Positions 3-36,644 of a stretch of DNA of 38,283 nucleotides are shown one piece after another; positions within the stretch are counted from its first letter, which is position 1; each line of letters begins with the position of its first letter. Under the pieces are notes generated by a model that saw only the letters and a list, made by a program, of their open reading frames with translations, did no database searches and was not told the DNA's origin. This DNA is from an uncultured Cytophagales bacterium (GTDB lineage Bacteria; Bacteroidota; Bacteroidia; Cytophagales; JAAEPT01). Location of the stretch: contig CAYGKP010000002.1 of assembly GCA_964350605.1 (NCBI GenBank), forward strand, positions 1 to 38,283. Reading direction: 5' to 3'. The position numbers were made by a program, and so were the translations under genes.

Positions 3-959
3 TATACCCATACCAACCCGCTCTATTGCCAAATCCAGCTAATGAGAATGACCAAGCACTGGCATGAGGATACCATCACTTGGAATATGTTCTATGGAAG
101 CGGGGCTGGCCAACTAAATTATCCTGTAGAAATTGATCCAACGATTGTTGCGGATGGTCCAACGACTACAACGGGTGACCAGCACGTCGATGTGACAAGA
201 ATCGTCCGTGATCTGGTTGCCTTGCCAGATAGTATGCGTCATGGATTCCACATCAAGCTCCGGGATAATCCAACTTGGCCAAGCAGGAACGTGTATTGGG
301 AGAAAGACCCCAGGTTGGTAATCAAATACATGGTCTCGGAGCCTGTTTGCGACAAATGGGAAGGAGATTGCGGATACTTGAGCTCTATCACCCGAGATGG
401 TAGCGTGGGAATTGGTACAGTGCCTACTGACACTTTCCATGTGGCAGGAGGCAATGCCAGATTTGAAGAAAGCGTCAAGGTTGAGGATTCTCTTGGGGTA
501 GGCACCCTGTCACCCCAAGAGCGGTTTCATGTCGCATCAGGGGCGAATGCATTGGTGGACGATACCCTCTTTGTTGCTCACAGACTGATTGTTGGTGATT
601 TGACGAACACAGCGTATCCCGAAGCGCTGCTTTCAGTTGATGGGCTTTTGATTGCCAAACAGCTTCGAAGCACCCCCCAGGCTTGGGCTGATTATGTGTT
701 CGGGGAGGAGTATCAATTGATGGAGTTGGATTCGCTTCGTTCGTTTATCGAAGAAAATGGTCATTTGCCTGGGATTCCATCAGAGAAAGAAGTGCTATCA
801 AACGGCATAGAGCATGCGGAGATGGATGCAGCACTTCTAGGGAAAATCGAAGAATTGACCCTTTACATTCTCGAGCAAGAGAATCTCTATCGCAAAGAGA
901 TCAGCGAGATGAGGCAAGAGCTCCAAGAGCTCCGCCAACTGATCGACTCTGACAACTAG
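3..959 (+). CDS. Tail-fibre-like surface protein with C-terminal coiled coil; probably 5'-truncated by the window edge
   Basis: The frame is open from nt 3 with no stop before the first ATG at 42, so the gene likely starts upstream. The N-terminal segment 'WHEDTITWN...HIKLRDN' looks like a beta-sandwich. A tail-fibre-type motif occurs twice (GIGTVPTDTFHVAGG / GVGTLSPQERFHVASG). The C-terminal module 'WADYVFGEEYQLMELDSLRSFIEENGHLPGIPSEKEV...KIEELTLYILEQE' plus a heptad-rich tail matches something I recognise from many uncharacterised Bacteroidota proteins. Confidence 0.7.
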   Translation, partial: YTHTNPLYCQIQLMRMTKHWHEDTITWNMFYGSGAGQLNYPVEIDPTIVADGPTTTTGDQHVDVTRIVRDLVALPDSMRHGFHIKLRDNPTWPSRNVYWEKDPRLVIKYMVSEPVCDKWEGDCGYLSSITRDGSVGIGTVPTDTFHVAGGNARFEESVKVEDSLGVGTLSPQERFHVASGANALVDDTLFVAHRLIVGDLTNTAYPEALLSVDGLLIAKQLRSTPQAWADYVFGEEYQLMELDSLRSFIEENGHLPGIPSEKEVLSNGIEHAEMDAALLGKIEELTLYILEQENLYRKEISEMRQELQELRQLIDSDN

Positions 960-964
960 TCGAG

Positions 965-1708
965 ATGTTTCGGCTCGGAATTTTTCTTGTGTTGGTAGCG
1001 TGCCGGGCAGCAATTGCATCGGCTCAAACCGCCTATTGGATTGCCACTTCTTCTCCTTCGAATTGGAGCAACCCTGCTAACTGGTCAACTGAGAAGGTGC
1101 CCTGCATTGAGGATTCGGTGGTTTTCAACAGTGGCTCTACTCACAGTTGCATTGTCGACTATGCGGTTGGCATTCGCGCGTTAACGATCGAGTCGAGTTA
1201 CACAGGAGTTACGGCTAGCATTCTTGTATCGAATCCTTACAGCTTCTTCGTTGCCGGGACATTCCTACAGGAAGGCGGCAGCTTCATTAGCGCCACGGGA
1301 GGCAGAATCGAGGTTGAGGGTGACTTCGCCTCGATTGGCGGTGACTTTTTCACAGATACTTCACGGTTTGCAGCACCGATCCCGATTCCGGCTTTCTACA
1401 ATTGTACGTCACCGTTTGCTCTATTGAGCCGACAATTAGGGGGCGGCTACCACATCACCCGAGGGGGGTACCTAGCCTTCAAATACGTGGAACGATACAA
1501 TCCCGGAGTGCTTCGCTATGCGATTTATGACAAGCAGTACAATAAGCTTTCGACGGTGCCTTCTCTCACCAAAGAACTCGGCTCGAACTATTACGAGTTG
1601 AATCTGAACGGCCTTGCAGATGAACGAGAGTTCTATGTCTTAGAAGTCCTCAATGAGAAAGGAGACCGTGAGGTGCTCAGATTCCAATTCAGAGTAGAGC
1701 CCAACTAG
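965..1708 (+). CDS. Secreted hypothetical protein (Sec signal peptide)
   Basis: 247-aa ORF starting 5 nt after the previous stop. The N-terminus MFRLGIFLVLVACRAAIASAQ is a typical signal peptide. The 'NWSNPANWS...VP..DSVVF' motif resembles the N-termini of secreted adhesin-like proteins. I recognise no catalytic motif. Confidence 0.7.
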   Translation: MFRLGIFLVLVACRAAIASAQTAYWIATSSPSNWSNPANWSTEKVPCIEDSVVFNSGSTHSCIVDYAVGIRALTIESSYTGVTASILVSNPYSFFVAGTFLQEGGSFISATGGRIEVEGDFASIGGDFFTDTSRFAAPIPIPAFYNCTSPFALLSRQLGGGYHITRGGYLAFKYVERYNPGVLRYAIYDKQYNKLSTVPSLTKELGSNYYELNLNGLADEREFYVLEVLNEKGDREVLRFQFRVEPN

Positions 1709-1710
1709 TG

Positions 1711-2235
1711 ATGAATCAGCGGTTTTTATCACTTACTACGCTGGCCATTGCATTAGTTGCTTTGGGCTTTTCCTTGTACGGGTTTTTGGGTGACAGTAAA
1801 GCAGAACCTGCCTCGACTGTCTATCTAGATAATCAGAGGGTGTTCTCGCAATTCGCGGCAACCAAAGAGGCCCAAAAGGAGCTAAACTCGCTTCAGCTCC
1901 GCCAGCAGTACATCCTGGACTCTTTGGCCGTCCAGATAAAGGCGATGCAGTCAAGCTCGGAGCCAAATGGAAGGGATTTGACCTTCCAGCAGGAATACTA
2001 TCAGAAAGTCTTAATGGACTTTCAGACCGCCTATGCCGAGAAGGACCGGGAGTCTTCGGCTCAAATCTGGGGTCGACTAAACGAGTACATTTATCAGTTT
2101 GGGAGAGATAACGGCTACCAGTACATTTTTGGAGCCAATGGATCGGGTACAATCATGTACGCTGATTCACTTCAAAATGTGACAGACCAAGTGATTGAGT
2201 TTGTCAACCAACGCTATGAGGGCTATGAAGAATAG
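1711..2235 (+). CDS. OmpH/Skp-like periplasmic chaperone (operon-embedded paralog)
   Basis: The ATG at 1711 follows the upstream TAG (1706-1708); the track's GTG at 1708 is an alternative start. There is an N-terminal hydrophobic anchor. The layout is OmpH-like: 'VYLDNQRVF..F..TKEAQKEL' followed by a long Q/E/K-rich helical arm. The C-terminal segment is 'GYQYIFGANGSGTIMYADSLQNVTDQVIEFVNQRY'. Confidence 0.65.
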   Translation: MNQRFLSLTTLAIALVALGFSLYGFLGDSKAEPASTVYLDNQRVFSQFAATKEAQKELNSLQLRQQYILDSLAVQIKAMQSSSEPNGRDLTFQQEYYQKVLMDFQTAYAEKDRESSAQIWGRLNEYIYQFGRDNGYQYIFGANGSGTIMYADSLQNVTDQVIEFVNQRYEGYEE

Positions 2236-2773
2236 AAGCCTTGCGTTAGTTGGACTGCTGCTAAGCGCATTCTTGCTGGGATCTTGCGAACCAGGAAAGA
2301 TTGACTTGCGTGATGCACAAGAGTGGTCCGCTGAAAATGTTGAGGTGCTGGATCGAGAGAGCGAGGTGAGTAACTACCTGATCTCCTCCAAGTTCAAGCC
2401 TTGGTCAGAGGGAAGCGCCGGAGAGATGTTGTCGTTTCGCGATGGTGTTTACCAGTTTGAATTGACCTTCAAAAGGCGCAATGCGTCGGCGAACGAGTTT
2501 CGCTCGGACGACTACTACTTTCTCTTCGACCTACAGCAGGACATCGAGTTGAAGGTGGGCGAGCAGACCTACCCATGCACCATGTACCACATGCAAAGAG
2601 ACTATGGCTTGACTGGCTATAGTACCATTCACGTGGGCTTCGATCTGGGTGGCCCGCAAGAGGGTGACATGCAACTGATCATTACGCCTCGCCCTTTGCA
2701 AATCGGCTCAGTGAAGCTGGTTTACACCAAGGAGGACATGGCCAAAATCCCTGATTTAAAGAGCAATTCATGA
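2225..2773 (+). CDS. Lipoprotein, function unknown
   Basis: The ORF opens at 2195, but the ATG at 2225 gives MKNRSLALVGLLLSAFLLGSC, a signal peptide plus lipobox. It overlaps the upstream stop by 11 nt. Its own stop overlaps the next start in ATGA at 2770-2773. Confidence 0.7.
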   Translation: MKNRSLALVGLLLSAFLLGSCEPGKIDLRDAQEWSAENVEVLDRESEVSNYLISSKFKPWSEGSAGEMLSFRDGVYQFELTFKRRNASANEFRSDDYYFLFDLQQDIELKVGEQTYPCTMYHMQRDYGLTGYSTIHVGFDLGGPQEGDMQLIITPRPLQIGSVKLVYTKEDMAKIPDLKSNS

Positions 2774-5700
2774 AGCTGATACGTCGCAACCTTCGGTTGA
2801 TGGCCGCCTTTTTGGTGGTAGAGCTTCTGGGTGAAATGTTGGCACCTCAGATGGTGATGGCGTTGACCTCCGGGCCGACACAGCCGGAGGTGACCTCGTT
2901 TGAGCCGGTAGGCACCACAGAAATGGTGGACCTGTTTTCGGGAGACTTCACCTACAACGTGCCCTTGTTTGAATTACCTGGTCCGAACGGGGGGTACCCG
3001 TTCAACTTGGCCTATCACGGTGGGGTCACGATGGATCAGGAAGCCAGTTGGGTCGGCTTGGGTTGGTCGCTAAACCCAGGGGCGATCAATCGCCAGATGC
3101 GAGGGTTGCCCGATGACTTTAAGGAAGATACAATCAAAACCAAGTTTTCGATGAAGCCCCAAACGACAGTCGGGGTGAGTGCAGGTGTTGGGGTAGAGGC
3201 ATTCGGAAGTGATTTGTCGGGCTTGTATGCAGGAGGCAGCCTTGACTTACAGATCTACTACAATAACTACAAGGGGATCGGTTATTCGCTGGGCATTACG
3301 CCCAGCCTCGGCTATGGGTTTGGGGACGGCACGCCAGGTGTTGATGATTTTCTGGGTCTTGGGGTGAGTCTGTCTTTTGACTCTCAGGAAGGAGTTGGCG
3401 TTTCGCCAAGACTTTCTTTCAGTGGACAGCAGAAGAATGCGTACCGATCGTATTCAATCGGGTTTGATGTAAACTCACAAGATGGACTAGTTGGCCTTTC
3501 GCTTGGCACCACTGCCTCAAACACTGCGACTAGTAAGGACTCTGATTCACCCAGTTGGGCTAAAGGCTCAGGGTCTTACTCTTCTTCCTACAGCTTTGCT
3601 GCCATTGCCAAGACCCCTACGGTGAAAATGCCGATGGGAGGATGGAGTGCCAAATTGAACTTCGCTTTTGGGTTGGCCAACTTTGGCACATATCCGTACG
3701 GACGTGTAGGAGGTACTTTTTCCATTCAGCGACCCCAAAAGAGTGCTGTGAGCAAGCGTGCTTTCGGCTACCTGTACCTGCAGGACGATACGGATAACAA
3801 AGGCCTTTTGGACTTCGACCGCGAGAAAGACGGGGTAGTCTCGAAGGCGAGCCCGAATCTTGCCGTTCCTGTTTTGACCAACGATGTGTACTCGGTCACA
3901 GGGCAAGGGATGGCAGCGATGTACCGCCCCTATAGATCGGACATAGGCCGCATCAACGACCCGAGAGAAACTTCATTTACTGGCGGCGGTTCTTTGGGCT
4001 TGGAGTTTGGTGTTGGGCTAGGGGGGCATTTTGGCGGAGACCTTCAGATCTTCAGTCATTCGAGCAAGAGCGGGGTTTGGGAGACGGACCTTCACGAGTC
4101 GGATGTGGATTTCCAGGCCTGGAAGCCAGGTAGCCTCTTTGAGCCAGTGTACTTCCAGGCGTATGGTGAGCACAGCACTGATCCACTTAACGAATTGGAT
4201 CATATTGGCGGAACGACTGCCATGCGTCCACGGCTTGATAAATCAGGTTTGGCCTGGAAGGCCGAAAAGAAAATGGAACGTGGCTCGGGGGGAATCATCA
4301 CCCTGGCCCAGGGCCCTAAAGTGGTCAACGAGGAGAGGGCACCCCGATCAAAAGCCATCCAGCACTTCACCAATGAGCAGTTGGGCGGGGCGGAACTCGC
4401 TTTGCCCTTGTTTTCTGTTCCGTACAAGAACGAATCTGGTACCAAGAACTACTTAGACAGGGGCGATTACAAAAAGCACCACATCGGGGGCTACCAAGTG
4501 GTCAATGAGGAAGGGTTGCGCTATGTCTATGGCTTGCCTGCGTACAACAACAAGCAAGTTGAATGTCTTTTTTCGCTAGACCCCGGCACCAACAATCCTG
4601 GACCGATTACCACCAACTTCGGGGAGAAGAATGGCGAACCCAACTATGATGTCAAGCGCACCGATAAGTTCTACCAGCGCACCGAAACGCCCAGGTATGC
4701 ACATGCTTATTTACTAACCTCAATCGTTGGGGCAGATTACGTCGACGCTGATTACGATCCTGCCGAACCAGCAACCTGGGGTCCTTCAGAGGGTGATCAT
4801 GGGTATTGGGTGCGCTTCAACTACCAGCGCATGTCGACCGACTATAAGTGGCGTGCGCCGCTTTACGGCGCCAATTACATCCAAGGATACCGCACCACCC
4901 GAGGAGATGACAAAGGGTCATATGTGTATGGCGAAAAGGAGCTTTGGTACCTCGAATCAGTTGAGACCAGCTCACACATTGCTGTATTTCACACCTCTGC
5001 CCGCGAGGACGCACACGGCGCATCGAAGGAAGTAGCAACCTCAAGCTCTGATATTGACATGAGCAAGCACAGCTTCCGTTTGGACAGCGTTGAGCTCTTT
5101 TCAAAGAGAGCCCGTGAAGCTGATCAAGCTCCCATCAAGGTTGTGCACTTCAAGTACGACTATACACTTTGTAACGGAGTGCAGAACTGGACGGATCAGA
5201 ATGGTATTACCGATGGTACTGGTAAGCTCACGTTGCGCAAGCTTTACTTCACCTACGGTCAGAGCAATCGAGGCAAGCTGAGTCCCTACCAGTTTGGCTA
5301 TGGCAATGAAAACCCAGACTACAGCAGCCACCAATACGATCGCTGGGGAGGGTATCACCGCCTCGATTCCCTGGGGCATGGCAACTGGAATGCCCTGGAT
5401 TTCCCTTACACAGTTCAGTATTCCACTCTAGGGCCCGAAAGCCTCAAAGACAGTTTAGATAAGTACGCGGGTGCCTGGTCTTTGAAACAGATCACCCTGC
5501 CTTCGGGTGGCAAGATTGACGTCGAGTACGAGGCGGACGATTACGCCTTTGTCCAAGACAAGCCGGCCATGCAGATGATGAACGTATGGGTAGACAAATC
5601 CGACGGGAATGGGCCCGGCTCCAGAATCGTCCAGGGGAGACGCCGACTTTACTTCGAGTTGGAAAGTTCGCTATCAGCGGATGCGGGAGATGCTGAGCGA

Positions 5701-8700
5701 CTCAAGGAGGTCAACAAATACCTACGGGGCGTTGATCAGGTGTATTTCAGGGCACTGATGACGTTGAGGGAGGATGGCGACTTCCCAGAGGAGTACATAT
5801 CTGGGTACGCGAAGGTGAACCCCGACCAGACGAAGCGAGGCCTTTGGAGGGCTGGGGGCAGCGGCGTTTACACCCATGGCTACTTTGATGTAGAGCCTAT
5901 GAAAGGGAGTAAGGGGCGCAAGTACCATCCCTTCTCCTCTGGTGCTTGGCAGCATTTGCGCAGCGAACAGCCGTTGTATGCAAACCTAGGTGGTCGTTTG
6001 TACGGCGATGGTCAAGAGGATGAAGGCGAGAAGCTCAACAAGGCCCGCATCAACTCATTGATTGGCGCTATTCCAAACGCCATCAAAATGTTCAAGGACT
6101 TCAACGAGATCGCCAAGAATCGAGACTGGGGTGTGGACATCAAGCCCGAGCAGTCCTGGATTCGACTTTCGTGCCCCGACCAAATCAAGTACGGTGGAGG
6201 CCATCGTGTTCGTTCGATTGTGCTCACAGATGCATGGGATGAGATGACTGGCCAACAGTCTTCAAAGCAAGGTCAGTATTATGACTACACCATGGTCGAG
6301 CGGGGCAATGTGATCAGCAGTGGGGTGGCGACTTACGAGCCAATGGTGGGTGGCGATGAAAATCCTTTCCGACGGGGCAAAGAATACAGTGAGAGTAAGC
6401 TGCTGAAGACGAACAACAACTTGTTCTTCGAGATGCCAGTGAACGAGTCCTACTTTCCGGGTGCCACGGTTGGCTATCGGAAAGTGACTGTCAAGACACT
6501 CACCTCGCATCGGTTGGGGCTTCCACCGGAGGATGCTCAGAATTTGCCTACATCGGTTTCCGGCACAGGCGCCACCGTTCATGAGTTCTACACCGCCAAG
6601 GAGTTCCCGGTCATAGTCCAGGAGACGGCCATGAACGCCAAGCCTGACAAACCGTTCTTTTTCGGGATTCCCTTTGTGGGCTCGGTTAAGATCACAGGAC
6701 TTGCGGCCTCGCAGGGCTACAGCGTCGAGCTGAATGACATGCACGGCAAGCCCAAGCAGGTGAGTCACTACGCGCAGCGAAGCGATGGCACGATCTCCAA
6801 TGCACCGGTGAGCTACAGCAAGTACAACTACTTGTTCGAACAGGAGTTTTTGTCGGGCGATAGTTTGAATGTGCGCTATCGGCTCACCAACAAGGTGATG
6901 ACCCTTACGGGTGAGTATGTCAACGGTCAGGCGCAGAAGGAGGAGCGTCTGATGGGCGTTGACTACGAGTTCTTCTCTGACTTACGAGAGAACAAGGATG
7001 TGTCGACCAATACGCAGATCGGCCTGGGGGTTGATATCATTCCCGCGTTGTTTTTCCCGATTCCTATCCCCAGTGCGTGGCCTACTACGCATTATCAGGC
7101 AACCACGCTGCGCACCGCTGTGACCAATAAGGTCATCCATCGCTCGGGGATCATGACGGGCATGGAGGTGTACGACCGTGGGTCGCTAGTCAGGAGCGAG
7201 TACAAGTTGTTTGACGCCCTGACAGGGCGCCCGGTACTGACCGAGACGACTAACAACTACGACGCGCCGATTTACTCCTATAGCATGCCCGCGCACCTGA
7301 TTTATGATGGCATGGGACCAGCCTACAAGAACATTGGGTTGACTTTCACCGAAGATGTCTCGCCAGTCTCAAACAAGCCGGGCTACTATGCCATAACACC
7401 TGGCGTGGGAGCTACTTGGCAGAACCACCTGGTGCCAGGTGACGAGTTTGTGGTAAGCAAAGGAGGAGCACCGGTAGCCACTGGGCAGAAGAATGTTCGG
7501 GCAATCTATGAGGGGAAAAATGGATCAAACGATCCTGTATTCTTGTTTGAAGACGCCTTGTCATCCGAGGAAGATCTCAACTTCTTTCTCACCCGTTCGG
7601 GCCGCCGAAATCACCTTTCGGTCGATGTGCAGAGTGTAGTAGCGATGGAGGACCCGACTTCTGAAAGAGTAGAAGAATCGTGTACTACTCAAGTTGTTTT
7701 CCCAATTATTGATGGTGAGCGAGCCTATTTGAGCACGCTCCCGTCTGAAATTGCGCGCACGGTCAATGGAATAATGAATGCCTACAGGAATGAGAATATT
7801 GTAGACTGTGGGTGTGTAGACTCAACTGGGATTTGCAGCGGTTGTGATACGATTTACCCTGAAATTCTTTACCGTTTTACGGGACTTTTTCCGCCAGTTG
7901 ATTCTTTACTGCCAACACCACCAACCTATTATTGGTTGGCTAAGCTGAACAGTGAAAGCCACCACCAATACCAAAACGAATTCTATCCTCTGAGTCCTGA
8001 TTATCAGTACATACCCGTGATCTTAAGCTGCGAAGCTCTCGGAGATGATTGTGATGTATTCCCGGATGGTATTTTTTGGGATGATAAGCTGCACAAAGAC
8101 ACAGCTGCTTTCAATGTATCGCTAATGTCTAGCTTTGATTCCGTAATGAGTCGCTGGGTTTATGTCAATCGAGGAGGTGTTCTATTTGGGGGTAACAGTA
8201 TTCCAGAGGACTATGTGGAACGGCGGGCTGGAGGTGGTCCCATTCATCAAGACTTCGCAGTTTTCTTCGATGCAACTGATGGTAGAATTATACCGGTTTG
8301 GGAGATAGACAGCTTGTATGATCCATGGATCCCCAGGGACATGGGTTGTGGCATCAATACATACGATTCTACCTGTTATGCGTCCCTAGGTTATAATCAT
8401 GGACCACAGTCTAATTGGGGAGGGGAGGGAGTTCATTATAGAATGATTAAAACCAACGGCGACACGATTATCGCATTGCATGCGATTTCAGGGATCCCAT
8501 GGCGAACGTATTGGGAAACGGGTCCTTACCTGACATTAGACACAACAGATGTGGTTTCATCGGCGTACCTGGTTGATGACATCCTCTCTATCTCTGCGAC
8601 AACGTTTGATGATGCACATCCGCTGGATTTTGCTTCGCTGGACACGACCCAGCAGGTCAAGGCAGAGTTAGGCGACCGCCCGTTTTATCACTGGTCGACG

Positions 8701-10035: not shown

Positions 10036-10045
10036 ACCTGGAATC

Positions 10046-10741
10046 GTGAAGCGGCTAGTGATACAACAGGTTCTTTCTTTGGCGCTCTTCGCGGTGCCAG
10101 CGATATCTCACGCTCAGGACCTCCGAGCTGATTTGCAAGCTGCTTCGGATTGGTATAGCCGGACTAGTGGCTTCAGAGTGGACGGGCGAGTAAAAATGCT
10201 GGATGGTTCTGGTGTAGATCAATCTTTTATTCTTGTCCGCTCGGGCAATTCGATTTACACCAAGTTTTTCGGCTCCGAAGTATTGCTCAATGAGCAAGCA
10301 ATGATTTTGGCCGAGCCACTGAACCAAACAGTCGTCTATCAACCACTTAAGCCAGGGGAGTTCGAGAGGCAGCTTCGCAAACGAAAGTTAGAGTTGGTGG
10401 ACACCTCCATGCTGGCTGCTACAAACTATTCGGTTTCGTATTTGGGTGAGAGCAGCGGGCTTAAAACCTATGAACTCACGTATGTCTCTGGCGCGATCTC
10501 CAAGGCTTGGCTTTCGTTTCGCTCCAGCGACTCGTTTCTCACCAAGGTCGAGTACTCGACGGCCCCGGCGGTATCAGGCGGTCGAGCCTCTAAAGTGATC
10601 ATCAGCTACAGTTCGTCTGCTTTGTCAGCCACGGACGCGATGCTGCTCAATCGATCGAGAATCCTTACTGGAAGCGGTGGGGCAGTGGAGTTGGCACCAG
10701 CATACAGTGGTCACCATCTAATTGTTGCCAGCAATGAATAG
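10046..10741 (+). CDS. Small secreted protein between the two giant genes (possible adaptor/chaperone)
   Basis: GTG start 10 nt after the giant gene's stop. The signal peptide is (M)KRLVIQQVLSLALFAVPAISHAQ. The protein is 231 aa with a beta-rich composition. Its stop overlaps the RHS start (ATGAATAG, 10734-10741). Confidence 0.7.
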   Translation: MKRLVIQQVLSLALFAVPAISHAQDLRADLQAASDWYSRTSGFRVDGRVKMLDGSGVDQSFILVRSGNSIYTKFFGSEVLLNEQAMILAEPLNQTVVYQPLKPGEFERQLRKRKLELVDTSMLAATNYSVSYLGESSGLKTYELTYVSGAISKAWLSFRSSDSFLTKVEYSTAPAVSGGRASKVIISYSSSALSATDAMLLNRSRILTGSGGAVELAPAYSGHHLIVASNE

Positions 10742-13700
10742 GGCTCGCGCTATCCTACTGATGTTATCTGCGCTCGGGCTACAGCTCGCAGCGAAAGCAC
10801 AATCCTTGGACTACGGAGTTTCCTACCGACTCAGTAGCTCGCAGATTAGCGGATCATCAATGCTCAAGGCAGTCGAGCCTGTATTGGGTGAGGGCGAACT
10901 CTCTTCGCAAGGATATGATGTGATGGTACAGTTGCGTTATGAACGCACCTATGGCTTGGATATCGAAGCGGTAGCTTGGTGGAAGCAAGTGATTTATGTG
11001 GTGCGCTTTTATGATGAGACTGAGCTCTTGATCCGAGAGGATCAAGACACCCTTAAGCTAGACCACTCTGGCTCAGGCTTTAATTTTTCACCTGTTAATC
11101 TGTACCGTTCGGTTTCACGCCATGCTGAGCTTGAAATCCTTTCGACCAGTTCGCTTGGCAACCCGCCGCCGGATATCAATCTGGAGTTGGTGTTTTCTCC
11201 CCAGTATGAGCGAGCGGGAACGCTCACTGCGCCTGAGTTATTTGTTGACGGATCGGACTCTATCGTGAGTTGGAGTTATGTGATTGGTAGCGAAGGTTTC
11301 GAATTGGAGTGGGTGTTCATTGATTCAGAACACGAGTCTTTGGAAGTCATTAATTCTTCTAATGCGTTTGATTGGATTCGCCCTGTGCGCTTGGTTAGCG
11401 AGGAACAGCACCATTTCTTCAATGAGGCCCTGCCTGCAGGGACGGTGTATTTCCGGGTCAGGGGCCTCCGTGATGAATCGCAACAAGGTGAACGCGGTGT
11501 GTTGCAGGGGCCCTGGTCGAATGTGGCAAGTCTTGTGGTTTCGCCGGGTACGATGCTAACGGGCATCAACTGGCAGTCGGTGGTGAGTTATGCGGAACAT
11601 GGCCGCTCGAAGACATTGGTAACCTATTATGACGGTAGTCTACGCAACCGCCAAAGCGTTACTTCGTTGAGTACCGATTCGTTGACACTGGTTTCCGAGT
11701 CGGTTTATGATTATGAGAGCAGGCCCAGCATCAGCCTGATTCCCACACCCATGCAGGGAAGTCAGCTGTCGTTTCGACAGGGTGTTCATGCCTTTGAAGG
11801 CACAGAACCGGAGAACGAACGCCTTTATGACCGATACGACGGATCTGCACCGCTGAGCACGACCTCTAAAGTGGAATCGTATTATGGTGGGCAGTCTGGC
11901 ATTGAACAACTGAATGCCGATTTGCTGCCCCAATCAGAGGGTTATGCCTATGCCCAGACGGTATTCACCCCTGACGCAACGGGGAGGGTCGAGCGCCAAT
12001 CTATGCCCGGTGCACGCTTGAAGATCAACAGTGATGATGCGCCATTGGACAGCCTTCACTACACGCGCTTCTACTATGGTAAGCCAAGTTCAACCGAACT
12101 GCATCGTCTGTTTGGTTCGAATGTGGGTCTCTCCAAGCACTACACTAAGGAGTATGCGGTCGATCCAGATGGCCAAGTGAGCCTCACCTACAAGGACCAA
12201 GAGGATCGCGTGATTGCAACTGCGTTGACTGGTGAGGCGCCTGACAATCGTTTGCCGCTGGCCAGCTACCAGCCTGAGCTGAGCACCTTCAACTTGGATT
12301 CAGACAATCAGATCAATAACCTCACGGGTGTTTCGCATTCGGAAAGCAAGATTGTTAAAACCACTCCAGGCGATCAGCGCTACTATTTCTACTACGACTT
12401 GGAAGGTGTGATTCCCTCAGGGAATTCGGCGCTTCCTACCCTTTGTCGCACGTGTGGCTACTCGCTTCACATTCACATCGAAGACCCAGATGGTAAGGTT
12501 GTCTACGACACGTTGCGAGTGTTCCCTGCTACCCCCGAAGATCCCAATTGCGGGGTGGATACCGCTTTCACCCGAGAGCATAACTTTGACACTTTGTTCA
12601 CCAAGGTTGGAGAGTACACGGTCTCAAAGACTCTGTACCTGAATGAAGAAGAGATCTTTTCCACCTTCAGAGAGGTCCGTGAAAGTGCTGCAGTTGCACT
12701 TGATTCAGCGGGGCTCGTCGAGTCTTTTCTTGACCAACTCAATCCTTCACTTTGTGATGTTACCTGTGAGCAACACTGTTTGACCAAGGTCTATCGGGAC
12801 AACCCCACTTGGGACCCTCAATCTAGTTTGTGGGATAGCTTAGATCATTCTCAGCAGGTTGATAGCTTACTATTGGTCTGTGTAGAGGACACTTGCTACG
12901 GGGTGTTAGACTCCATCTTTGCCGAGGTAAGCGAGGCAGAATGCGAGGGAATGGAGGGCGCCATGTTGGGTCAACTCTACCCCGATGGGTATTGGAATAG
13001 CGAGGAACTTCATACAGCTGATGGCCATACACCTGTCTATTGGGCCAAATTAGATGGCGCTGTTTTTCTTGATTCTGTGGGCAACGTGCTGAGTCCTTCG
13101 CCACCGGATGCGAGTTTTTACGATTGGGACAAGTTTGTCCCTTCTTGGGCAGAGGAGTTGTTGCCTTATCATCCAGAATATTGCATTCATCAGAAGAGTT
13201 GCCTGCAAGCCGTGCCAGCCAAGGATTTTGCCCGCGAATTGATGCAGGTCAAATCGAAGTCGGCAGCCATTTTCAAGAACTATGATGAGATCAACGCGCT
13301 GCTCAACGCTGATGATTTCTTCAGCAACTCTAGCGCTTTGGGCTGGGGGAAACGTGGGGATATGGTCGACTACATGACCAGCTTCGTCGATGAGGATGAG
13401 TATGACACTGACTACAATGGTGACGGATATGAGGACAGCACCTTCACGATGTGGCGGTTTTTCGAGTTGGACTATCTCTACGAACTCTCTGACCCGGCCT
13501 TGCCACATAACTCCGCGACAGAGTGGGATATGTTCCGCGCGGCGTATTTGGCTTACCGTGAGGAGTTGTTGCAAGAGATTGTTGAGGATGAGGTCGCCTC
13601 AAATTCAGGCTGCGCATTCCAGAGCGGGGAGCATGCCCTCTTTCCCCAGCCTGCTTTTCCTAAGTCAGAGTCAGAGATCGATTCATTGTACCAACTCGAC

Positions 13701-16700
13701 ACAACTGGACAATGCGCCGAGCAGTGTGAGTTGAACGTACAAATCTGGATGCAGGCGCTCTTTGATAACGGTTGTTCGGACGGTGATTCCAGCTATTTCA
13801 CCACAGCTGATTCACTGACCATTGCTTCCAACCTGTTGTCCTTTTGTATGGATAGCTGCGATGCGTCAGGATTCTTGTCAGGAGCCCTTTGGCTTGATGA
13901 TAGTCTCTCAAGTGATTTAAGAATTGATTCAGTGATTACAGTTCTTTCAGGTTACCCTTGTGGCTGGTCTGACATAGGGACTGACCGTGATTTTTTCTGT
14001 TCGGGTCACACCCGGGAGTTAACATTCACAACGTATCAAGTCATTGATGCAATAAACGACATCGCAGCAGCGAGACGAGACTCCTCCGCAATCTATTCTT
14101 ACAGTACCTATTCGGGATTGGACACAGTGTTTTCCAACCATGTCTATGGTAACTGGGACCCATACAGCATTGTATGGAAATCATTCCTAGTGCCTACTAG
14201 CGAGATCCATAACTATGATCCACTGACAACTCTTTGCCCTGGAGTTGACAGTATAAGTCTAGTTGTTTACGATAAAGAAGATGTGACATATCCTTGGTGG
14301 TATACCTGTAGTGCAGATGCAAGTATGAGCGAGTATGAGTATCGATTACTTTTCTACTTTGATTCATTAGAAGCTAAGTATTATGAAATCAATTTTGTTG
14401 GCAGCAACCCCCAATGCCTAGCGGGGAGCAATCACTGCATACAGATAAGGTTTTTTACGCAGGATGCGCTTGGCTGCCATTACATTCCCAGAGATAGTAT
14501 TGTGGGAGTGAGGAATCCCAGAATTGACTTTGGATGTGAAGGTCGTCCTCCATGTCAAAGTGGTGAAGGGTTTCATTTGCACGATAGCAATTGGGACTGG
14601 GATAATCAGAGTGCTTCGTGCATTCTAACGGATGTAGAGCTTTCGAATGGCCAGATTATTACCACATATGTAACCACCACTGGATATGGTTATTGGGGTC
14701 AGCTTGATGTAAAGACAGATCAACTTGAGGTATCATTGGATACTTGTATCTTCAACGAAGAGAATTTTTCGTATCATTTGGATTGGCAAGCAACGCGAGA
14801 CTCCTGCATTTCTCAACAGCGAGAAGACTTGCTGCAAGAAGCTGAGGCTGCCTGGCAGGATACACTTCGAATTTGGAGTTCTGATTACGTTGAAGAGCAT
14901 TTTCGCTCGTGCATGAACGAACCTTTTGATGAGAGCTTCTACTACACAACAGAAGCCGGGGACTACCACTACACCCTCTACTACTACGACCAAGCAGGCA
15001 GTCTGACCCAAACGGTTCCGCCGGAGGGTGTGGATGTTTTGGGTAGTTCGGCTTTCAACACAAAAGGCGAGTACCAATTCTCGGTTGAGCCCAACCATCG
15101 CCTCAAGACGATCTATCGCTACAACAGCCTGGGCCAGTTGACCTACCAGAAAACCCCCGATGGCGGCGAAACGCGCTTCTGGTACGACAAGGCCGGCCAG
15201 CTGCGCCTCTCGCAGAACGCGAAGCAGGCGACTGAGGATCACTTCTCCTACACCAAGTACGACTTGCAAGGCCGCGTGGAGGAGGTTGGTCTGCTTGATG
15301 GCCTAGCCCTCGACTCGACGGCTCTGAGCGCGTATACGCCTGCCGTGTATGCCCTGTTGGACAACTACTCCTTCCCAGAGGAGCCGACTTATGCACTCAG
15401 CGAGCAGACGATTACCCATTACGACGATCCCTTTGGTGGCCTGATCGCGCAGAAGTATTTGCGCAACCGCGTCTCTGCTGTGGAGGTGTTCGACCACACG
15501 AGCACGCTGGTGAGCACGACGGCCTACAGCTACAACCCGCACGGCCATGTGGACCGCGTGGGGGTGAAGGTGGGCGATCTGCCGACGAAGGTGACCGAGT
15601 ATGACTTCGACCTGATCAGCGGGAACGTGAACGAAGTGCGCTATCAGCCGGGCGAGGCGGACCGCTTCTATCACCGCTACGAGTACGACGCGGACAATCG
15701 GATCGAGGCGGTGTATACCTCCAGAGACGGGTACATTTGGGACCGGGAGGCGCGGTATTTCTACTACGCGCACGGGCCGCTGGCAAGGGTCGAGATTGGG
15801 GAGTACAACGTGCAGGCGCTTGATTATGCGTACACGCTGCAGGGCTGGATCAAGGCGGTGAACATGCCGGGTGCATTGAGCGAGGAGACGGATGGGTTCA
15901 GCCGCGATGAGTTCGGGTATGCGCTGGGGTATTATGAGGGGGACTATACCCCGGCGGGCGCGGTGAACATGGGCAGCGCAAGCCAAGCGAATTTGTGGAC
16001 GGGCAACCCGGCGGGGCAGGTGCTGGGCGACGGACTGTTCACCGGGAACATTGCCTTCATGAACACGGACATCCGCCAGTATGACAGCATTCCAGGGGTG
16101 ACCGGGAAGGGCAACAAGCTGATGGCGTATCAGTATGACCAGTTGAACCGGTTGCGGCAGGGTACGTCGTTCAATGACTACACGGGCAGCTGGAGCACGT
16201 TGACGGGCGACCAGGGCGACATGGCGGCCACCTACGACGGGATGGGCAACATCTTGAGCCTGACGCGTGGGAATGGCGACAACTTCAGTTACAACTACAA
16301 CCGCGACGGGTCGAGCGAGCTGGTGAACAACAAGCTGCGGGGTGTGGGTGGACTGCATGGCAGCAACGCGACTAGCAACTACAGCTACGATGAGATTGGG
16401 AACCTGACTGCCGATGCGAGCGACACAATGCAGGTGGAGTGGACCGTATATGGTAAGGTAGCCAAGATCACTACGCCCGGCTCGACCACCGAATTCACCT
16501 ATGACGGCGCGGGCGAACGCGTTTCGAAAACCGTGACCAAACCTTCGGGTACGGTGAAAACCCAGTACGTCCGCGATGCCGCTGGCCAGCTTCTCTCGGT
16601 CTATATCGACGGTGTTCAGGAAGAGGTTCCGCTATACGGTTCGTCGAGACTCGGCGTTTGGAACCCGATGGCCCTGCGCGACACTTCCCATTTCACGGCC

Positions 16701-17930
16701 CAGCAGGGTGAGAAAAGCTATGAGCTCTCCAACCACTTGGGCAATGTGTACGTGACCCTATCGGACAAGAAGGTGGGGGTAGACTCTACGAGTGACGATA
16801 CCGTTGACTATTACTTAGCGGATGTCCTGAGTGTCCAGGATTACTACCCCTACGGCTCGACGGTTGATGGGCGTAACTCCTTTGGTGACTACCGCTTTGG
16901 CTTTAACGGCATGGAAAGGGAGGAGGAAGTGAACTCCGACAAGAGCGGCTATGACTTCGGCGCGCGGCTCTACGACTCGCGGGTTGCGAGGTGGTGGAGT
17001 CCAGATCCGTTGGAGGCGAAGTATCCAGCTTATTCACCCTATGTTTTCGCAGTTGGAAAACCAACAGTGTTTAAGGATTACGATGGAAGAGACATATATT
17101 TTGTCATCAACATAAAGCACTATAGCGAATTCAGTGATAAGGTTATTGAACATGAGTTGAGAATAAATATTTCTAAAATAAGTGACCCTGATGTTACTCT
17201 TAAAAAAGCCGAAGCGGAGTTAATGGGGCTGGGGATGTCTGAAGGCGAAGCACAGCAATTTTTTGACAATTACAGTGTAATACAGGATGTTAGGGATCTT
17301 CATGTAATGAACTCTTCACTGGGAACTTCACAGAATGATGCAAACGACCTCTGGAATATTGTAAACAGTAACTTGTTAGATATTGACGTGAATGTGGCAC
17401 GGGATGTTGCAGGAAATCCGAGAACACCTAGCGCGGCTGCAGGCACTGTAAATTGGTCAAGAAACTACCACACATCTGTTGAATTAAGTGATGGTTCAGG
17501 AACTTACCATTTCGCAGATGCTTTCACGCTAATCCACGAAGTTGGACACCTTCTGGAAGATTATTACAACTCATTAAGTTCTGAGCAGATTCAAGCAAAT
17601 GCTTATCTGGGTACTCTTCACACACTTATATCTCAATACAGAAATGAATGGAGGAAGCTAGTCCCAGATCTTGAGGACGAAGGCAATCCGTACAATGGTG
17701 AGTTTTATGGAAACCAAGAGCAAATCAGAGAATACATTGCCCAACGAATAGCTGGTCTGTTTGCAAGTGAGCAGTACGAATCAGGACTACCTAAGTACTC
17801 AGGATATCAGATACCGTTTTATTACCAGTATAGCGGCTTGCAAGATATCGGTAACCATAATCCCAGATTCTCCAATCACATTACAGATGATGGGACCGAC
17901 TTAAGAAAAGAGTCATGGTTAGAGCGATAG
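10734..17930 (+). CDS. RHS/YD-repeat polymorphic toxin (about 2,398 aa) with Sec signal peptide and C-terminal HExxH toxin tip
   Basis: The ATG at 10734 gives MNRARAILLMLSALGLQLAAKAQ, a signal peptide. 'LVTYYDGSLRNRQSV...VYDYESRP...AQTVFTPDATGRVERQSMPG' resembles the DUF6443-type module that precedes RHS repeats in Bacteroidota (from memory). There are many YD repeats between about 14960 and 16900, including YYYDQAGSLTQ, YRYNSLGQLTYQ, FWYDKAGQLRL, YEYDADNRIEAV, YQYDQLNRLRQG, YSYDEIGNLTA and FTYDGAGERVSK. The core ends with 'YDFGARLYDSRVARWWSPDPLEAKYPAYSPYVF...KDYDGRD'. Confidence 0.93.
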   Translation: MNRARAILLMLSALGLQLAAKAQSLDYGVSYRLSSSQISGSSMLKAVEPVLGEGELSSQGYDVMVQLRYERTYGLDIEAVAWWKQVIYVVRFYDETELLIREDQDTLKLDHSGSGFNFSPVNLYRSVSRHAELEILSTSSLGNPPPDINLELVFSPQYERAGTLTAPELFVDGSDSIVSWSYVIGSEGFELEWVFIDSEHESLEVINSSNAFDWIRPVRLVSEEQHHFFNEALPAGTVYFRVRGLRDESQQGERGVLQGPWSNVASLVVSPGTMLTGINWQSVVSYAEHGRSKTLVTYYDGSLRNRQSVTSLSTDSLTLVSESVYDYESRPSISLIPTPMQGSQLSFRQGVHAFEGTEPENERLYDRYDGSAPLSTTSKVESYYGGQSGIEQLNADLLPQSEGYAYAQTVFTPDATGRVERQSMPGARLKINSDDAPLDSLHYTRFYYGKPSSTELHRLFGSNVGLSKHYTKEYAVDPDGQVSLTYKDQEDRVIATALTGEAPDNRLPLASYQPELSTFNLDSDNQINNLTGVSHSESKIVKTTPGDQRYYFYYDLEGVIPSGNSALPTLCRTCGYSLHIHIEDPDGKVVYDTLRVFPATPEDPNCGVDTAFTREHNFDTLFTKVGEYTVSKTLYLNEEEIFSTFREVRESAAVALDSAGLVESFLDQLNPSLCDVTCEQHCLTKVYRDNPTWDPQSSLWDSLDHSQQVDSLLLVCVEDTCYGVLDSIFAEVSEAECEGMEGAMLGQLYPDGYWNSEELHTADGHTPVYWAKLDGAVFLDSVGNVLSPSPPDASFYDWDKFVPSWAEELLPYHPEYCIHQKSCLQAVPAKDFARELMQVKSKSAAIFKNYDEINALLNADDFFSNSSALGWGKRGDMVDYMTSFVDEDEYDTDYNGDGYEDSTFTMWRFFELDYLYELSDPALPHNSATEWDMFRAAYLAYREELLQEIVEDEVASNSGCAFQSGEHALFPQPAFPKSESEIDSLYQLDTTGQCAEQCELNVQIWMQALFDNGCSDGDSSYFTTADSLTIASNLLSFCMDSCDASGFLSGALWLDDSLSSDLRIDSVITVLSGYPCGWSDIGTDRDFFCSGHTRELTFTTYQVIDAINDIAAARRDSSAIYSYSTYSGLDTVFSNHVYGNWDPYSIVWKSFLVPTSEIHNYDPLTTLCPGVDSISLVVYDKEDVTYPWWYTCSADASMSEYEYRLLFYFDSLEAKYYEINFVGSNPQCLAGSNHCIQIRFFTQDALGCHYIPRDSIVGVRNPRIDFGCEGRPPCQSGEGFHLHDSNWDWDNQSASCILTDVELSNGQIITTYVTTTGYGYWGQLDVKTDQLEVSLDTCIFNEENFSYHLDWQATRDSCISQQREDLLQEAEAAWQDTLRIWSSDYVEEHFRSCMNEPFDESFYYTTEAGDYHYTLYYYDQAGSLTQTVPPEGVDVLGSSAFNTKGEYQFSVEPNHRLKTIYRYNSLGQLTYQKTPDGGETRFWYDKAGQLRLSQNAKQATEDHFSYTKYDLQGRVEEVGLLDGLALDSTALSAYTPAVYALLDNYSFPEEPTYALSEQTITHYDDPFGGLIAQKYLRNRVSAVEVFDHTSTLVSTTAYSYNPHGHVDRVGVKVGDLPTKVTEYDFDLISGNVNEVRYQPGEADRFYHRYEYDADNRIEAVYTSRDGYIWDREARYFYYAHGPLARVEIGEYNVQALDYAYTLQGWIKAVNMPGALSEETDGFSRDEFGYALGYYEGDYTPAGAVNMGSASQANLWTGNPAGQVLGDGLFTGNIAFMNTDIRQYDSIPGVTGKGNKLMAYQYDQLNRLRQGTSFNDYTGSWSTLTGDQGDMAATYDGMGNILSLTRGNGDNFSYNYNRDGSSELVNNKLRGVGGLHGSNATSNYSYDEIGNLTADASDTMQVEWTVYGKVAKITTPGSTTEFTYDGAGERVSKTVTKPSGTVKTQYVRDAAGQLLSVYIDGVQEEVPLYGSSRLGVWNPMALRDTSHFTAQQGEKSYELSNHLGNVYVTLSDKKVGVDSTSDDTVDYYLADVLSVQDYYPYGSTVDGRNSFGDYRFGFNGMEREEEVNSDKSGYDFGARLYDSRVARWWSPDPLEAKYPAYSPYVFAVGKPTVFKDYDGRDIYFVINIKHYSEFSDKVIEHELRINISKISDPDVTLKKAEAELMGLGMSEGEAQQFFDNYSVIQDVRDLHVMNSSLGTSQNDANDLWNIVNSNLLDIDVNVARDVAGNPRTPSAAAGTVNWSRNYHTSVELSDGSGTYHFADAFTLIHEVGHLLEDYYNSLSSEQIQANAYLGTLHTLISQYRNEWRKLVPDLEDEGNPYNGEFYGNQEQIREYIAQRIAGLFASEQYESGLPKYSGYQIPFYYQYSGLQDIGNHNPRFSNHITDDGTDLRKESWLER
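16687..16743 (+). repeat. RHS-core segment (..TSHFTAQQGEKSYELSNHLG..) that is duplicated downstream at 18666-18728
   Basis: Aligned by eye, the 39-nt core at 16703-16741 (gcagggtgagaaaagctatgagctctccaaccacttggg) matches 18689-18727 (gcagggagagaaaagctatgagctttccaatcacttggg) at 36/39 positions. In-frame peptides are 17/21 identical. Confidence 0.85.
17094..17927 (+). other. Variable C-terminal toxin domain of the RHS protein (about 278 aa, putative Zn-metallopeptidase)
   Basis: It begins right after the RHS core terminus (...DYDGRD, ending 17093). HEVGH is encoded at 17535-17549, followed by LLED. GC falls to about 32-33% in sampled lines (17101-17220), against about 60% in the YD-repeat region. 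There are no Cys residues. Confidence 0.6.
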
Positions 17931-18661
17931 TACTCGTAACATTTGTTGGTTTCTTGTTTAGTGGATGTGTCTCACCAAAGATTGAATCATTGACCTATCT
18001 ATCTGGTGACAGTGTATCTACATTAAGGGCTGGCATGCCGGCTATCGTACTATTGAGAACATCAGGTCTAGGTAAAAAGAGAGCCTCGGTCTCTTTTACT
18101 CGTTTGCCCAGAAAGCCTGTAATGGAGCTGTATTCTAGTGATCACGAGGTCTTAGTAGAATCTTCTGAGGGAATGTTGCCGATTATTCACGATGAAGAAG
18201 CAGGAGACACCCTATTCCTCAAGTCATCAAGCGGAAACGAAGTCTACGACTATTACCTGTTTTTCACTCTCCCTCGCGTTCAACAACCTTATCTATCGCT
18301 ATCTGTTGACAGCACCAGATCGTTTAATGGTGAAAAGGGCTTCATTACGAGATCTGATTACCTCAGCTTGAACGGAAAACTATCTTTTGACTACGATAAG
18401 ACGCTACAGGACCAATGCCCGAACATGTACTTCAACTTGAAATCGGTTAAGGTTTCGTTCAAGGATAATTTGAAAGTTGAGTTTGCTGATTTCAGGGTGA
18501 ACGATCTTAATAATACATTTAGCTGTGACGTTTCCTACCTATCTAGCTTCTTGCTTAAAGAGAAAACAAGATTTACGTTCTACGTAGAGTATAAGGTCGT
18601 CCTTGACTGCGGCTATGAATACACTCACACAGAGATGCTGCACGCTACATATTTCCCATAA
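17915..18661 (+). CDS. Lipoprotein, putative cognate immunity protein
   Basis: The start overlaps the RHS stop by 16 nt. MVRAIVLVTFVGFLFSGC is a signal peptide plus lipobox. It shares the toxin tip's low GC and sits in the canonical position immediately 3' of a polymorphic toxin. Confidence 0.65.
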   Translation: MVRAIVLVTFVGFLFSGCVSPKIESLTYLSGDSVSTLRAGMPAIVLLRTSGLGKKRASVSFTRLPRKPVMELYSSDHEVLVESSEGMLPIIHDEEAGDTLFLKSSSGNEVYDYYLFFTLPRVQQPYLSLSVDSTRSFNGEKGFITRSDYLSLNGKLSFDYDKTLQDQCPNMYFNLKSVKVSFKDNLKVEFADFRVNDLNNTFSCDVSYLSSFLLKEKTRFTFYVEYKVVLDCGYEYTHTEMLHATYFP

Positions 18662-19186: not shown

Positions 19187-19618
19187 ATGGACTACACTAA
19201 GCTTGTTCGATTCGTAATTCTATCGCTTCTATTCTTTTCGTGCACTAAGAATAACGCTTCATACGTAAGAGTTAAGCACTGTGAATTGGAGTCTGGAAAT
19301 GTTCTGGGAGATGGAGCATATTTTGCAAGAATTAGTTATCCATCATCTAGTATAGATACTTTATCACTCCAGTTGTTTTCCGATCGCCTGGACACGATTA
19401 GTATTAGGTGTTATTCTGGAATGAATTTACCGTGTGCCATTGGATTCCAGGGAGTTAATAAAGAGAGGATTGCAGTTTTGATAAACTCAGATGAGGTCAT
19501 ACCATTTATCCTGGATGAAGAGTTTAGGAATATTCGTCTTCACTTTTATCCGGATGCGGGGAGTATCAAGTGTAATGTTGTGGCCTATGATAGGAATTGT
19601 ATTTCCCCGAGATATTAA
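19187..19618 (+). CDS. Small lipoprotein, possible orphan immunity protein
   Basis: MDYTKLVRFVILSLLFFSC is a signal peptide plus lipobox. The protein is 143 aa. It has very low GC like the toxin/immunity island and lies downstream of the RHS-core remnant. Confidence 0.55.
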   Translation: MDYTKLVRFVILSLLFFSCTKNNASYVRVKHCELESGNVLGDGAYFARISYPSSSIDTLSLQLFSDRLDTISIRCYSGMNLPCAIGFQGVNKERIAVLINSDEVIPFILDEEFRNIRLHFYPDAGSIKCNVVAYDRNCISPRY

Positions 19619-19789: not shown

Positions 19790-21598
<1,809 letters not shown>

Positions 21599-23022: not shown

Positions 23023-23143
23023 GGGAATCAAGAAGTGTTGTTTGGTCGGCTGGTTGCAGAAACCGTACCAGCAGTAGAGTGGGTAGCCGAATTGGCAAGA
23101 ATTACCACAAAGGTGCGTCGATTGATGCAGGGGGGCAAATCCG

Positions 23144-26067: not shown

Positions 26068-26090
26068 ATCGGAGACTCGTGAGCGATCAG

Positions 26091-29474: not shown

Positions 29475-29477
29475 GAC

Positions 29478-30839: not shown

Positions 30840-30840
30840 T

Positions 30841-31371: not shown

Positions 31372-31375
31372 TCGG

Positions 31376-32128: not shown

Positions 32129-32134
32129 GCAACC

Positions 32135-33589: not shown

Positions 33590-33635
33590 TCGGTGGTTAA
33601 GAATAGCAACTGAACATCAATCGTTTCATTAAGTC

Positions 33636-34745: not shown

Positions 34746-34773
34746 TTAGGCTACCACATAACGCATTCGCCTG

Positions 34774-36636: not shown

Positions 36637-36644
36637 CACACTCA

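Follow-up and report, generated by a model that had tools for sequence, protein, structure and literature searches.

A putative Sec-exported, Tc-like RHS cocoon module of Bacteroidota encoded beside a type II secretion-like gene cluster

Introduction

How would two exported proteins of about 2,400 amino acids (aa) each, encoded in one tightly packed operon, be assembled and brought out of the cell? The question is raised by a stretch of 38,283 nucleotides (nt) from an uncultured Cytophagales bacterium (GenBank assembly GCA_964350605.1, contig CAYGKP010000002.1, forward strand), the whole of which is called the window here. At its positions 3–18661, an original prediction made from the letters alone had recognized an operon pairing an SpvB/TcB-like giant protein (giant A) with an RHS toxin giant (giant B), and had proposed a self-contained, Sec-dependent delivery module resembling the toxin complex (Tc) systems. 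The reading that we favour, with slightly better than even confidence, is that the operon is a Sec-exported Tc-like BC cocoon module of Bacteroidota handled by a T2SS-like secretin machine (T2SS, type II secretion system), a coupling that is suggested by gene adjacency.

An operon cut by the window edge

Open reading frame (ORF) listing and direct reading of the junctions confirmed eight forward-strand genes, g1 to g8, of which the fifth and seventh encode the two proteins of about 2,400 aa that dominate the operon. The junctions from g1 to g8 measure +5, +2, −11, −4, +10, −8, and −16 nt, and the overlap codons ATGA at 2770 and ATGAATAG at 10734 were seen, reproducing the originally described layout. 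The frame of g1 is open up to base 3 with no start in the window, so the operon is cut by the window's 5′ edge. The genes of the operon, and one ORF that follows it, are as follows.

3..959, forward strand: g1, last 318 codons of a 416-aa secreted protein, frame open to the window edge
965..1708, forward strand: g2, 247-aa secreted protein with no assigned function
1711..2235, forward strand: g3, Skp/OmpH-like periplasmic chaperone paralogue (PF03938)
2225..2773, forward strand: g4, 182-aa lipoprotein with lipobox LLGSC, no Pfam or NCBIfam match
2770..10035, forward strand: giant A, 2421 aa, TcB-like shell protein by predicted fold and N-terminal motif
10046..10741, forward strand: g6, LolA3-family (LolA-fold) periplasmic protein with signal peptide (NF053579)
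10734..17930, forward strand: giant B, DUF6443-RHS protein, 2398 aa from ATG 10734 or 2402 aa from TTG 10722 (PF05593, TIGR03696)
17915..18661, forward strand: g8, 248-aa lipoprotein, 16-nt overlap with the end of giant B
19187..19618, forward strand: g9, 143-aa lipoprotein-like ORF after a 525-nt gap

Every product of the operon carries a signal peptide, a lipobox (LGSC in g4, FSGC in g8), or a hydrophobic N-terminal helix, as originally stated; these signals were read by eye in the translations, without a predictor. A scan for promoters and terminators returned counts at background level and was uninformative.

Giant A is predicted to adopt a TcB/RHS-type shell fold

Giant A at full length matched nothing above threshold in Pfam or NCBIfam, found no match among PDB sequences by phmmer or by a 38-sequence profile, and was not hit by the SpvB model (PF03534) even at E ≤ 10. 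TcdB_toxin_midN and TcdB_toxin_midC, which include the β-propeller that binds TcA, had no Pfam match in giant A and were absent from the precomputed Pfam column of its homologues. The SpvB signature that had first drawn attention to this protein survives as a short, sub-threshold motif, but not as a match of the full-length protein. When residues 28–135 were scanned alone, DUF6531 matched at E 8e-4 and SpvB at E 0.3. Among isolated N-termini of the family, DUF6531 was matched in 17 of 17 (best E 6.6e-7) and SpvB in 13 of 17 (best E 1.7e-3), the latter covering only profile positions 4–66 of 287. The regions of giant A can be laid out by residue as follows.

1–30: signal peptide or anchor
45–117: SpvB/DUF6531-type motif
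118–332: Gly/Ser-rich sheet of 12 strands
About 540–1650: conserved core
About 1650–2360: variable region with a carbohydrate-binding module (CBM)-like end
2365–2421: terminal YD-repeat hairpin

Two AlphaFold models of giant A were built with 39-sequence alignments and matched to the PDB by Foldseek. The model of residues 540–1660 (predicted local distance difference test, pLDDT, 77.4; predicted template modelling score, pTM, 0.74) retrieved as its first three matches two chains of YenB (4igl_A/C, E 2e-7 and 5e-7, probability 1.0) and TcdB1-TccC2 (6l7i_F, E 2e-6, probability 1.0). The next three were two Rhs cores of the type VI secretion system (T6SS; E 5e-6 and 1.4e-5) and a teneurin-like protein (E 1e-3), followed by unrelated folds. 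The model of residues 1–1200 (pLDDT 74.8, pTM 0.75) comprises an N-terminal helix, 12 long antiparallel strands at 118–332, and a beta-rich body, and its top PDB match was TcdB2-TccC3 (E 4e-5, probability 0.3). The likeness to TcB proposed from the sequence is thus borne out at the level of the fold by the matches of the core model. In a profile–profile comparison of giants A and B by hhalign, only the last ~60 residues of giant A aligned, and they did so to the YD repeats of giant B. For this reason giant A is considered to end in a YD hairpin, and, the match being confined to that hairpin, it cannot be termed an RHS-repeat protein by sequence. We conclude that giant A has a predicted TcB/RHS-type shell fold while failing the sequence definitions of TcB. 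An SprA-like translocon was considered for giant A and rejected, as no NCBIfam or Pfam match was found and the fold matches TcB/Rhs.

The C-terminal third of giant A is variable, and PF02018 (CBM_4_9) is found there in some homologues. Many Cytophagales loci encode giant A as two consecutive ORFs of ~1,620 aa and 850–1,250 aa (L003–L019, L030, L033, L039, L040, and L045 in our numbering of loci; for example, 9992–14830 and 14817–17624 in L004). The split lies at the end of the conserved core and points to a variable C-terminal part that can be separated off as a module.

Giant B is an RHS scaffold with an orphan low-GC tip

The RHS identity originally assigned to giant B is firmly placed, since both the RHS repeat (PF05593, score 32.2 against a cut-off of 22) and the RHS-associated core (TIGR03696, 41.5 against 32.5) exceed their curated cut-offs. 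A weak DUF6443 match lies at residues 290–437. Counting residues from TTG 10722, the protein is divided as follows.

N-terminus: signal peptide
About 150–660: conserved N-region including DUF6443
About 660–1400: Cys-rich variable region
About 1400–2040: RHS/YD shell
2041–2122: RHS-associated core
2123–2402 (nt 17088–17930): orphan tip with an HEVGH motif

A profile of residues 1400–2125 from 25 loci matched solved structures of Rhs proteins, YenC2, Tse5, SGS1, and teneurin-like proteins (E 1e-33 to 2e-10); the profile of the N-region (150–660) found no PDB match. By its sequence matches, giant B is a bona fide RHS toxin scaffold.

Conservation among 25 orthologues of giant B runs at 0.2–0.6 through shell and core and falls to 0.10 or less after about residue 2150. 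The tip has no homologue at E ≤ 1e-3, and neither the tip nor g8 has a counterpart among the 82 related loci sampled below. GC content is 0.50–0.53 in the rest of the operon vs 0.41 in the tip, 0.42 in g8, and 0.38 in g9. A hypervariable low-GC tip followed by a variable lipoprotein gene is the pattern of a polymorphic toxin/immunity cassette, which would make the tip a putative toxin; its HEVGH motif, the sole pointer to an activity, hints at a metallopeptidase. Pfam and NCBIfam scans gave no family match for g8 or g9. We regard g8 as a candidate cognate immunity protein of the tip; g9, whose membership in the module is uncertain, may be an immunity gene that was orphaned when the tip was exchanged in the past. 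In Cytophaga hutchinsonii (L001), ~1.3 kb without a long ORF (25900–27188) lies 3′ of the RHS and immunity genes, and a short element translating as '...VVCGTQTTIF...LTIVTKL' is repeated there at least 3 times.

The module lies beside a T2SS-like cluster

The original prediction had stressed that no secretion context was visible around the operon and had concluded on a self-contained, Sec-dependent system. Within the window, the Pfam and NCBIfam scans confirmed that TcA, PAAR/VgrG/Hcp, and a C-terminal sorting domain of the type IX secretion system (T9SS) are missing. The conclusion drawn from this did not hold, because the operon runs past the 5′ end of the window and the apparent absence of a secretion system is an edge effect. 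By an exact-sequence look-up, giant A was located on a metagenome contig of 37.9 kb (L083), of which position 7232 corresponds to base 1 of the window, and a complete T2SS-like cluster was found directly upstream on the same strand. Its genes overlap or nearly abut, in the following order.

Minor pseudopilin (N_methyl)
T2SSF protein
Major pseudopilin
172-aa membrane protein (weak Peptidase_A24 match)
T2SSE ATPase
640-aa secretin
399-aa protein
181-aa protein (weak T2SSM match)
fn3 lipoprotein
167-aa protein, followed by g1

The ~9 kb upstream on this contig gave no signal of TcA, T6SS, an extracellular contractile injection system (eCIS), or T9SS; inspection of the sequence before base 1, which the original prediction had called for, therefore yielded a T2SS-like cluster and neither TcA, a T6SS(iii) cluster, nor a contractile-injection cluster. 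PAAR, VgrG, Hcp, and Eag were found neither in the window and the upstream contig nor in the C. hutchinsonii locus, and the NCBIfam scan of all products found no T9SS C-terminal sorting domain (TIGR04183/TIGR04131). No marker having been found, delivery by T6SS, T9SS, eCIS, or TcA was rejected.

A putative type II secretion system has been described in C. hutchinsonii (CHU_3191–3202) and Flavobacterium johnsoniae (Fjoh_0611–0622) (Wang et al., 2017, PMC5553014), to which the cluster upstream here corresponds in gene content and order (minor pseudopilins, F, G, O, E, D, and L/M-like). In both species, the module or its LolA3 gene lies a few genes from that cluster. Giant A of C. hutchinsonii, CHU_3209, is at a distance of seven genes from the T2SS cluster, with the module immediately upstream of CHU_3202–3191. 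In F. johnsoniae, LolA3 (Fjoh_0605) is six genes from the first T2SS gene, Fjoh_0611, a layout that agrees with the divergent arrangement in two Flavobacterium loci (L071, L122).

The linkage was counted from both sides. Among 82 giant-A-centred loci with 10-kb flanks, T2SS-like genes were seen within the flanks in 14, on either strand and often at the flank edge. In a secretin-centred sample of 80 loci, 47 of them with at least 9 kb on both sides, a giant A homologue lay within 10 kb of the secretin in 26–29 of the 80 and in 23 of the 47 fully flanked loci; 18 loci were co-directional and 8 opposite. RHS repeats were nearby in 11 further secretin loci. By our own estimate, a family with 1–2 copies per 4–5 Mb genome would be linked by chance at ~1% or less. 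The linkage of module and T2SS-like genes recurs in three different arrangements across several orders, which argues for functional coupling rather than inherited synteny.

Two secretin loci per genome were observed in Kordia zhangzhouensis (L131 and L163) and in an Alistipes metagenome-assembled genome (L134 and L155). In the latter, a giant A homologue lies near both secretin loci, and the T2SS-like system and the module can therefore duplicate together.

Conservation across Bacteroidota and the accessory genes

Clusters at 90% identity include at least 3,842 relatives of giant A, and all the named ones are called 'hypothetical'. The module of giant A, LolA3, and giant B is present in at least 574 loci of species-representative Bacteroidota genomes, often with upstream Skp-like and lipoprotein genes, and giant A loci occur in Cytophagales, Flavobacteriales, Chitinophagales, Sphingobacteriales, Bacteroidales, and Saprospiraceae. 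Gene order was counted in the 82 giant-A-centred loci: giant A is followed by a same-strand RHS giant in 69, most of the others being cut off by the end of the contig. The co-occurrence of the SpvB-like giant, the small secreted protein, and the RHS protein, on which the original prediction had made its proposal depend, is thus strongly conserved across Bacteroidota. In C. hutchinsonii, the order is 484 aa, 362 aa, 182 aa, OmpH, 203 aa, giant A, 226 aa, RHS, and 154 aa.

The OmpH-like chaperone that had been seen in the operon is genuine by its score, as g3 exceeds the Pfam gathering threshold of PF03938 (E 4e-15, 56.6 bits against a cut-off of 32.4). By tblastn, a Skp-like gene is found directly upstream of giant A in 44–45 of the 82 loci, and the lipoprotein gene g4 stands between the OmpH gene and giant A in 37–38. 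A second, stronger OmpH/Skp gene (250 aa, PF03938 E 1.4e-27) lies on the reverse strand at 22492–23244 among housekeeping genes; g3 is therefore an extra, dedicated paralogue.

The gene between the two giants, g6, aligned over its full length with NF053579 (LolA3_fam; E 1.3e-8, 34.6 bits), below the curated cut-off of 83. Its positional equivalents matched LolA3_fam over their full length in 10 of 10 loci tested, scoring 47–222 bits, above the cut-off in 5 of the 10 and at 218–222 bits in Flavobacterium loci; this ~230-aa gene diverges too fast for detection by tblastn. A public gene call (L083 17427–17972, 181 aa) starts 150 nt downstream of ours. The start at GTG 10046 is the more likely one, because it adds a typical signal peptide and makes the match to the LolA3 profile begin at position 1. 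The name LolA3 goes back to Fjoh_0605, a protein with no gliding or T9SS phenotype and no known function (PMC11885536), and a Porphyromonas gingivalis protein called LolA3 binds LolB weakly (PMC13103446). The full-length NF053579 match of g6 and its positional equivalents constitutes the likeness to the published protein; described there as an orphan LolA paralogue, LolA3 is here a fixed component between two giants.

Where the T2SS-like genes end, the module begins with g1, whose full-length form (L083 6940–8190, 416 aa) shows a weak DNRLRE/CBM96-like match in its N-terminal half, in NCBIfam and Pfam, and a coiled-coil C-terminus. Nine loci, C. hutchinsonii among them, have a g1 homologue upstream of giant A. 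In two loci (L006 at ~18206 and L008 at ~19888, both on the forward strand), a sequence resembling the coiled-coil C-terminal domain of g1 is situated not upstream of giant A but between it and the RHS giant, and the position of this accessory gene is therefore not fixed. Matches to g2 (tblastn) were found upstream of giant A in 26–27 loci; elsewhere, g2 forms the C-terminal domain of larger proteins of 800–2000 aa.

Proposed mechanism and alternatives

In the mechanism that we propose, all parts of the module would cross the inner membrane by Sec, and the Skp-like and LolA3 proteins would hold the two 2,400-aa beta-rich chains in the periplasm. Giants A and B would then form a cocoon enclosing the autoproteolytically released tip, to which the terminal YD hairpin of giant A may contribute by complementing the shell of giant B, while lipoprotein g8 would protect the periplasm of the producer. 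The T2SS-like secretin and pseudopilus machine would carry the complex to or through the outer membrane, where giant A, through its variable CBM-like C-terminal region, and giant B, through its N-region, would engage the target cell. Single-chain T6SS Rhs shells span ~1,100–1,200 aa. The RHS segment of giant B, at ~720 aa, is TcC-sized and shorter than these, and the core of giant A adds ~1,100 aa, which supports a shell split over two proteins. Of the two roles first offered for giant A, that of a co-shell is the better supported; that of an outer-membrane translocator is possible, given its N-terminal amphipathic sheet, but less supported.

Several observations weigh against this mechanism. 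Adjacency is the sole evidence tying the module to the T2SS-like machine, and a BC cocoon is bulky compared with canonical secretin channels. The Foldseek TM-scores of giant A are 0.21 or less, which places its similarity to TcB at the level of the fold class and makes the structures not superposable, and neither RHS repeats nor TcB mid domains are recognized in giant A with sequence profiles. On the side of the cargo, the tip of giant B has no recognizable toxin family (no Pfam match), and the immunity role of g8 is assumed. In addition, C. hutchinsonii T2SS mutants had an almost unchanged extracellular protein profile, and their phenotype was cellulose-related (PMC5553014).

There is a bolder form of the proposal, which we hold as possible but doubtful: the Bacteroidota T2SS would not serve exoproteins in general but would be devoted to exporting and delivering a Tc-like RHS toxin, with giant A replacing TcA as the surface or target-binding partner, LolA3 and the Skp paralogue acting as periplasmic chaperones, and the pseudopilus driving release of the enclosed toxin towards a contacted cell. 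The machine and the module would in that case make up a new secretin-based, contact-dependent toxin delivery system. The secretin-like complex of F. johnsoniae carries an extracellular density without counterpart in the Legionella T2SS (Kaplan et al., 2021, PMC8455137), and it is tempting to speculate that this density is giant A.

Among the alternatives, the one closest to the original prediction survives best, although we consider it unlikely: a self-contained system relying on Sec and the β-barrel assembly machinery (BAM), in which giant A would sit in the outer membrane through its N-terminal Gly/Ser-rich sheet as translocator or anchor for the RHS protein, aided by the Skp-like chaperone, and the T2SS-like genes would be a separate matter. 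The dedicated OmpH/Skp paralogue conserved beside giant A speaks for it, as does the sheet itself, whose 12 antiparallel strands are amphipathic, with one hydrophobic face (mean Kyte-Doolittle +1.36 vs −1.24) and 30% Gly+Ser. After TcB-TcC, moreover, all remaining matches of the N-terminal model are outer-membrane barrels (Pla, FadL, LptD, BrkA). However, these matches are weak (E ≥ 0.014, TM ≤ 0.4), and residues 118–332 have about the length of the remaining SpvB domain (287 positions, of which the first 66 precede), so that the sheet may be a TcB-type N-terminal shell. No T2SS gene was seen within 10 kb in most giant-A-centred loci, which would also favour this model, but the 10-kb limit conceals T2SS genes lying beyond the RHS gene, as it did for the linkage in C. 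hutchinsonii, and the recurrence of the linkage in three arrangements across orders speaks against independent systems.

Somewhat less probable still is that a Tc-like BC toxin is freed without a dedicated channel, through outer-membrane vesicles or tubes or by lysis, the T2SS link reflecting co-localization in outer-membrane extensions or shared regulation. Canonical Tc toxins do leave by lysis-type systems, and the cocoon may exceed the size of a secretin. Every component here nevertheless bears a Sec signal or lipobox, unlike canonical TcB/TcC, the locus lacks genes for a holin, endolysin, or spanin, and the module continues the T2SS genes in a single co-directional array with tight packing.

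That the module is a non-toxin apparatus for surface adhesion or polymer binding, with a structural RHS shell, is improbable: it would fit the cellulose phenotype of the C. hutchinsonii T2SS mutants, which adhere less to cellulose (PMC5553014), the CBM_4_9 domain of some giant A homologues, the weak CBM96/DNRLRE-like match in g1, and a tip outside recognized toxin families, but the hypervariable low-GC tip and the variable small lipoprotein gene that come after the RHS-associated core are a polymorphic toxin/immunity signature, and the module is present in many non-cellulolytic lineages, including gut Alistipes.

Comparison with known systems

Among the known systems closest to the favoured BC cocoon module are the Tc BC subcomplexes (YenB-YenC2, PDB 4IGL; TcdB2-TccC3). 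They too are encoded by a pair of neighbouring genes. In both, the first protein has an SpvB-type N-terminal motif and a TcB-like shell fold, and the second combines RHS repeats in a TcC-sized segment with an RHS-associated core and a hypervariable C-terminal toxin, which is presumed in giant B. The differences are considerable. Unlike the Tc pair, both giants of the module have Sec signal peptides, a LolA3 gene stands between their genes, no TcA-type domain was found in the window products or in the ~9 kb upstream on the same contig, and the module is linked to a T2SS-like cluster instead of a lysis cassette. Giant A does not pass the Pfam models for SpvB and TcdB mid-N/mid-C and is ~950 aa longer than TcB, with its variable CBM-like C-terminal region and terminal YD hairpin, and giant B has ~1,400 extra N-terminal residues including DUF6443. 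The module resembles the Tc BC pair and Rhs effectors but falls outside the Tc family when this is defined by SpvB, the TcdB mid domains, and an accompanying TcA.

With T6SS Rhs effectors, the module shares an RHS cocoon with core domain and polymorphic tip followed by an immunity gene (here the candidate g8), a DUF6531-type motif at the start of the shell, and small dedicated chaperone-like partners. It differs from them in its Sec signal peptides and in a shell apparently divided over two proteins. The reports on the Bacteroidetes T2SS (PMC5553014, PMC8455137) do not mention the adjacent giant genes; they put forward cellulose-related outer-membrane proteins as affected cargo, or a function in membrane extensions.

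Searches for the module, DUF6443, Fjoh_0601–0610, CHU_3206–3211, and Bacteroidota T2SS together with Rhs or TcB/TcC found no description of the module, of DUF6443, or of the C. hutchinsonii and F. johnsoniae genes concerned in searchable full text, which excludes subscription-only literature. The RHS cocoon, the T2SS-like machine, and the LolA and Skp folds are known parts; what appears new is their combination and the cargo that it implies for the T2SS-like machine.

Genomic surroundings

The remainder of the window is an ordinary respiratory and housekeeping context, with no gene of a T6SS, eCIS, or T9SS. It includes TypA/BipA at 19790–21598, a nitroreductase, and an alternative complex III operon on the forward strand at 24721–37718 (multihaem cytochrome c, Fe-S subunit, NrfD-like protein, ActD, and cytochrome c, then COX2, COX1, and CtaA).

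Significance

If the proposal is correct, the T2SS-like machine of Bacteroidota would gain a cargo and a purpose, the orphan paralogue LolA3 a function, and more than 3,800 giant 'hypothetical' proteins an annotation. The proposal can be tested directly in the genetically tractable F. johnsoniae and C. hutchinsonii. It would also mean that Tc-type two-protein RHS cocoons exist without TcA, are exported via Sec, and are common in soil, aquatic, and gut Bacteroidota; such cocoons could be a rich source of encapsulation scaffolds as well as of interbacterial or anti-eukaryotic toxins.

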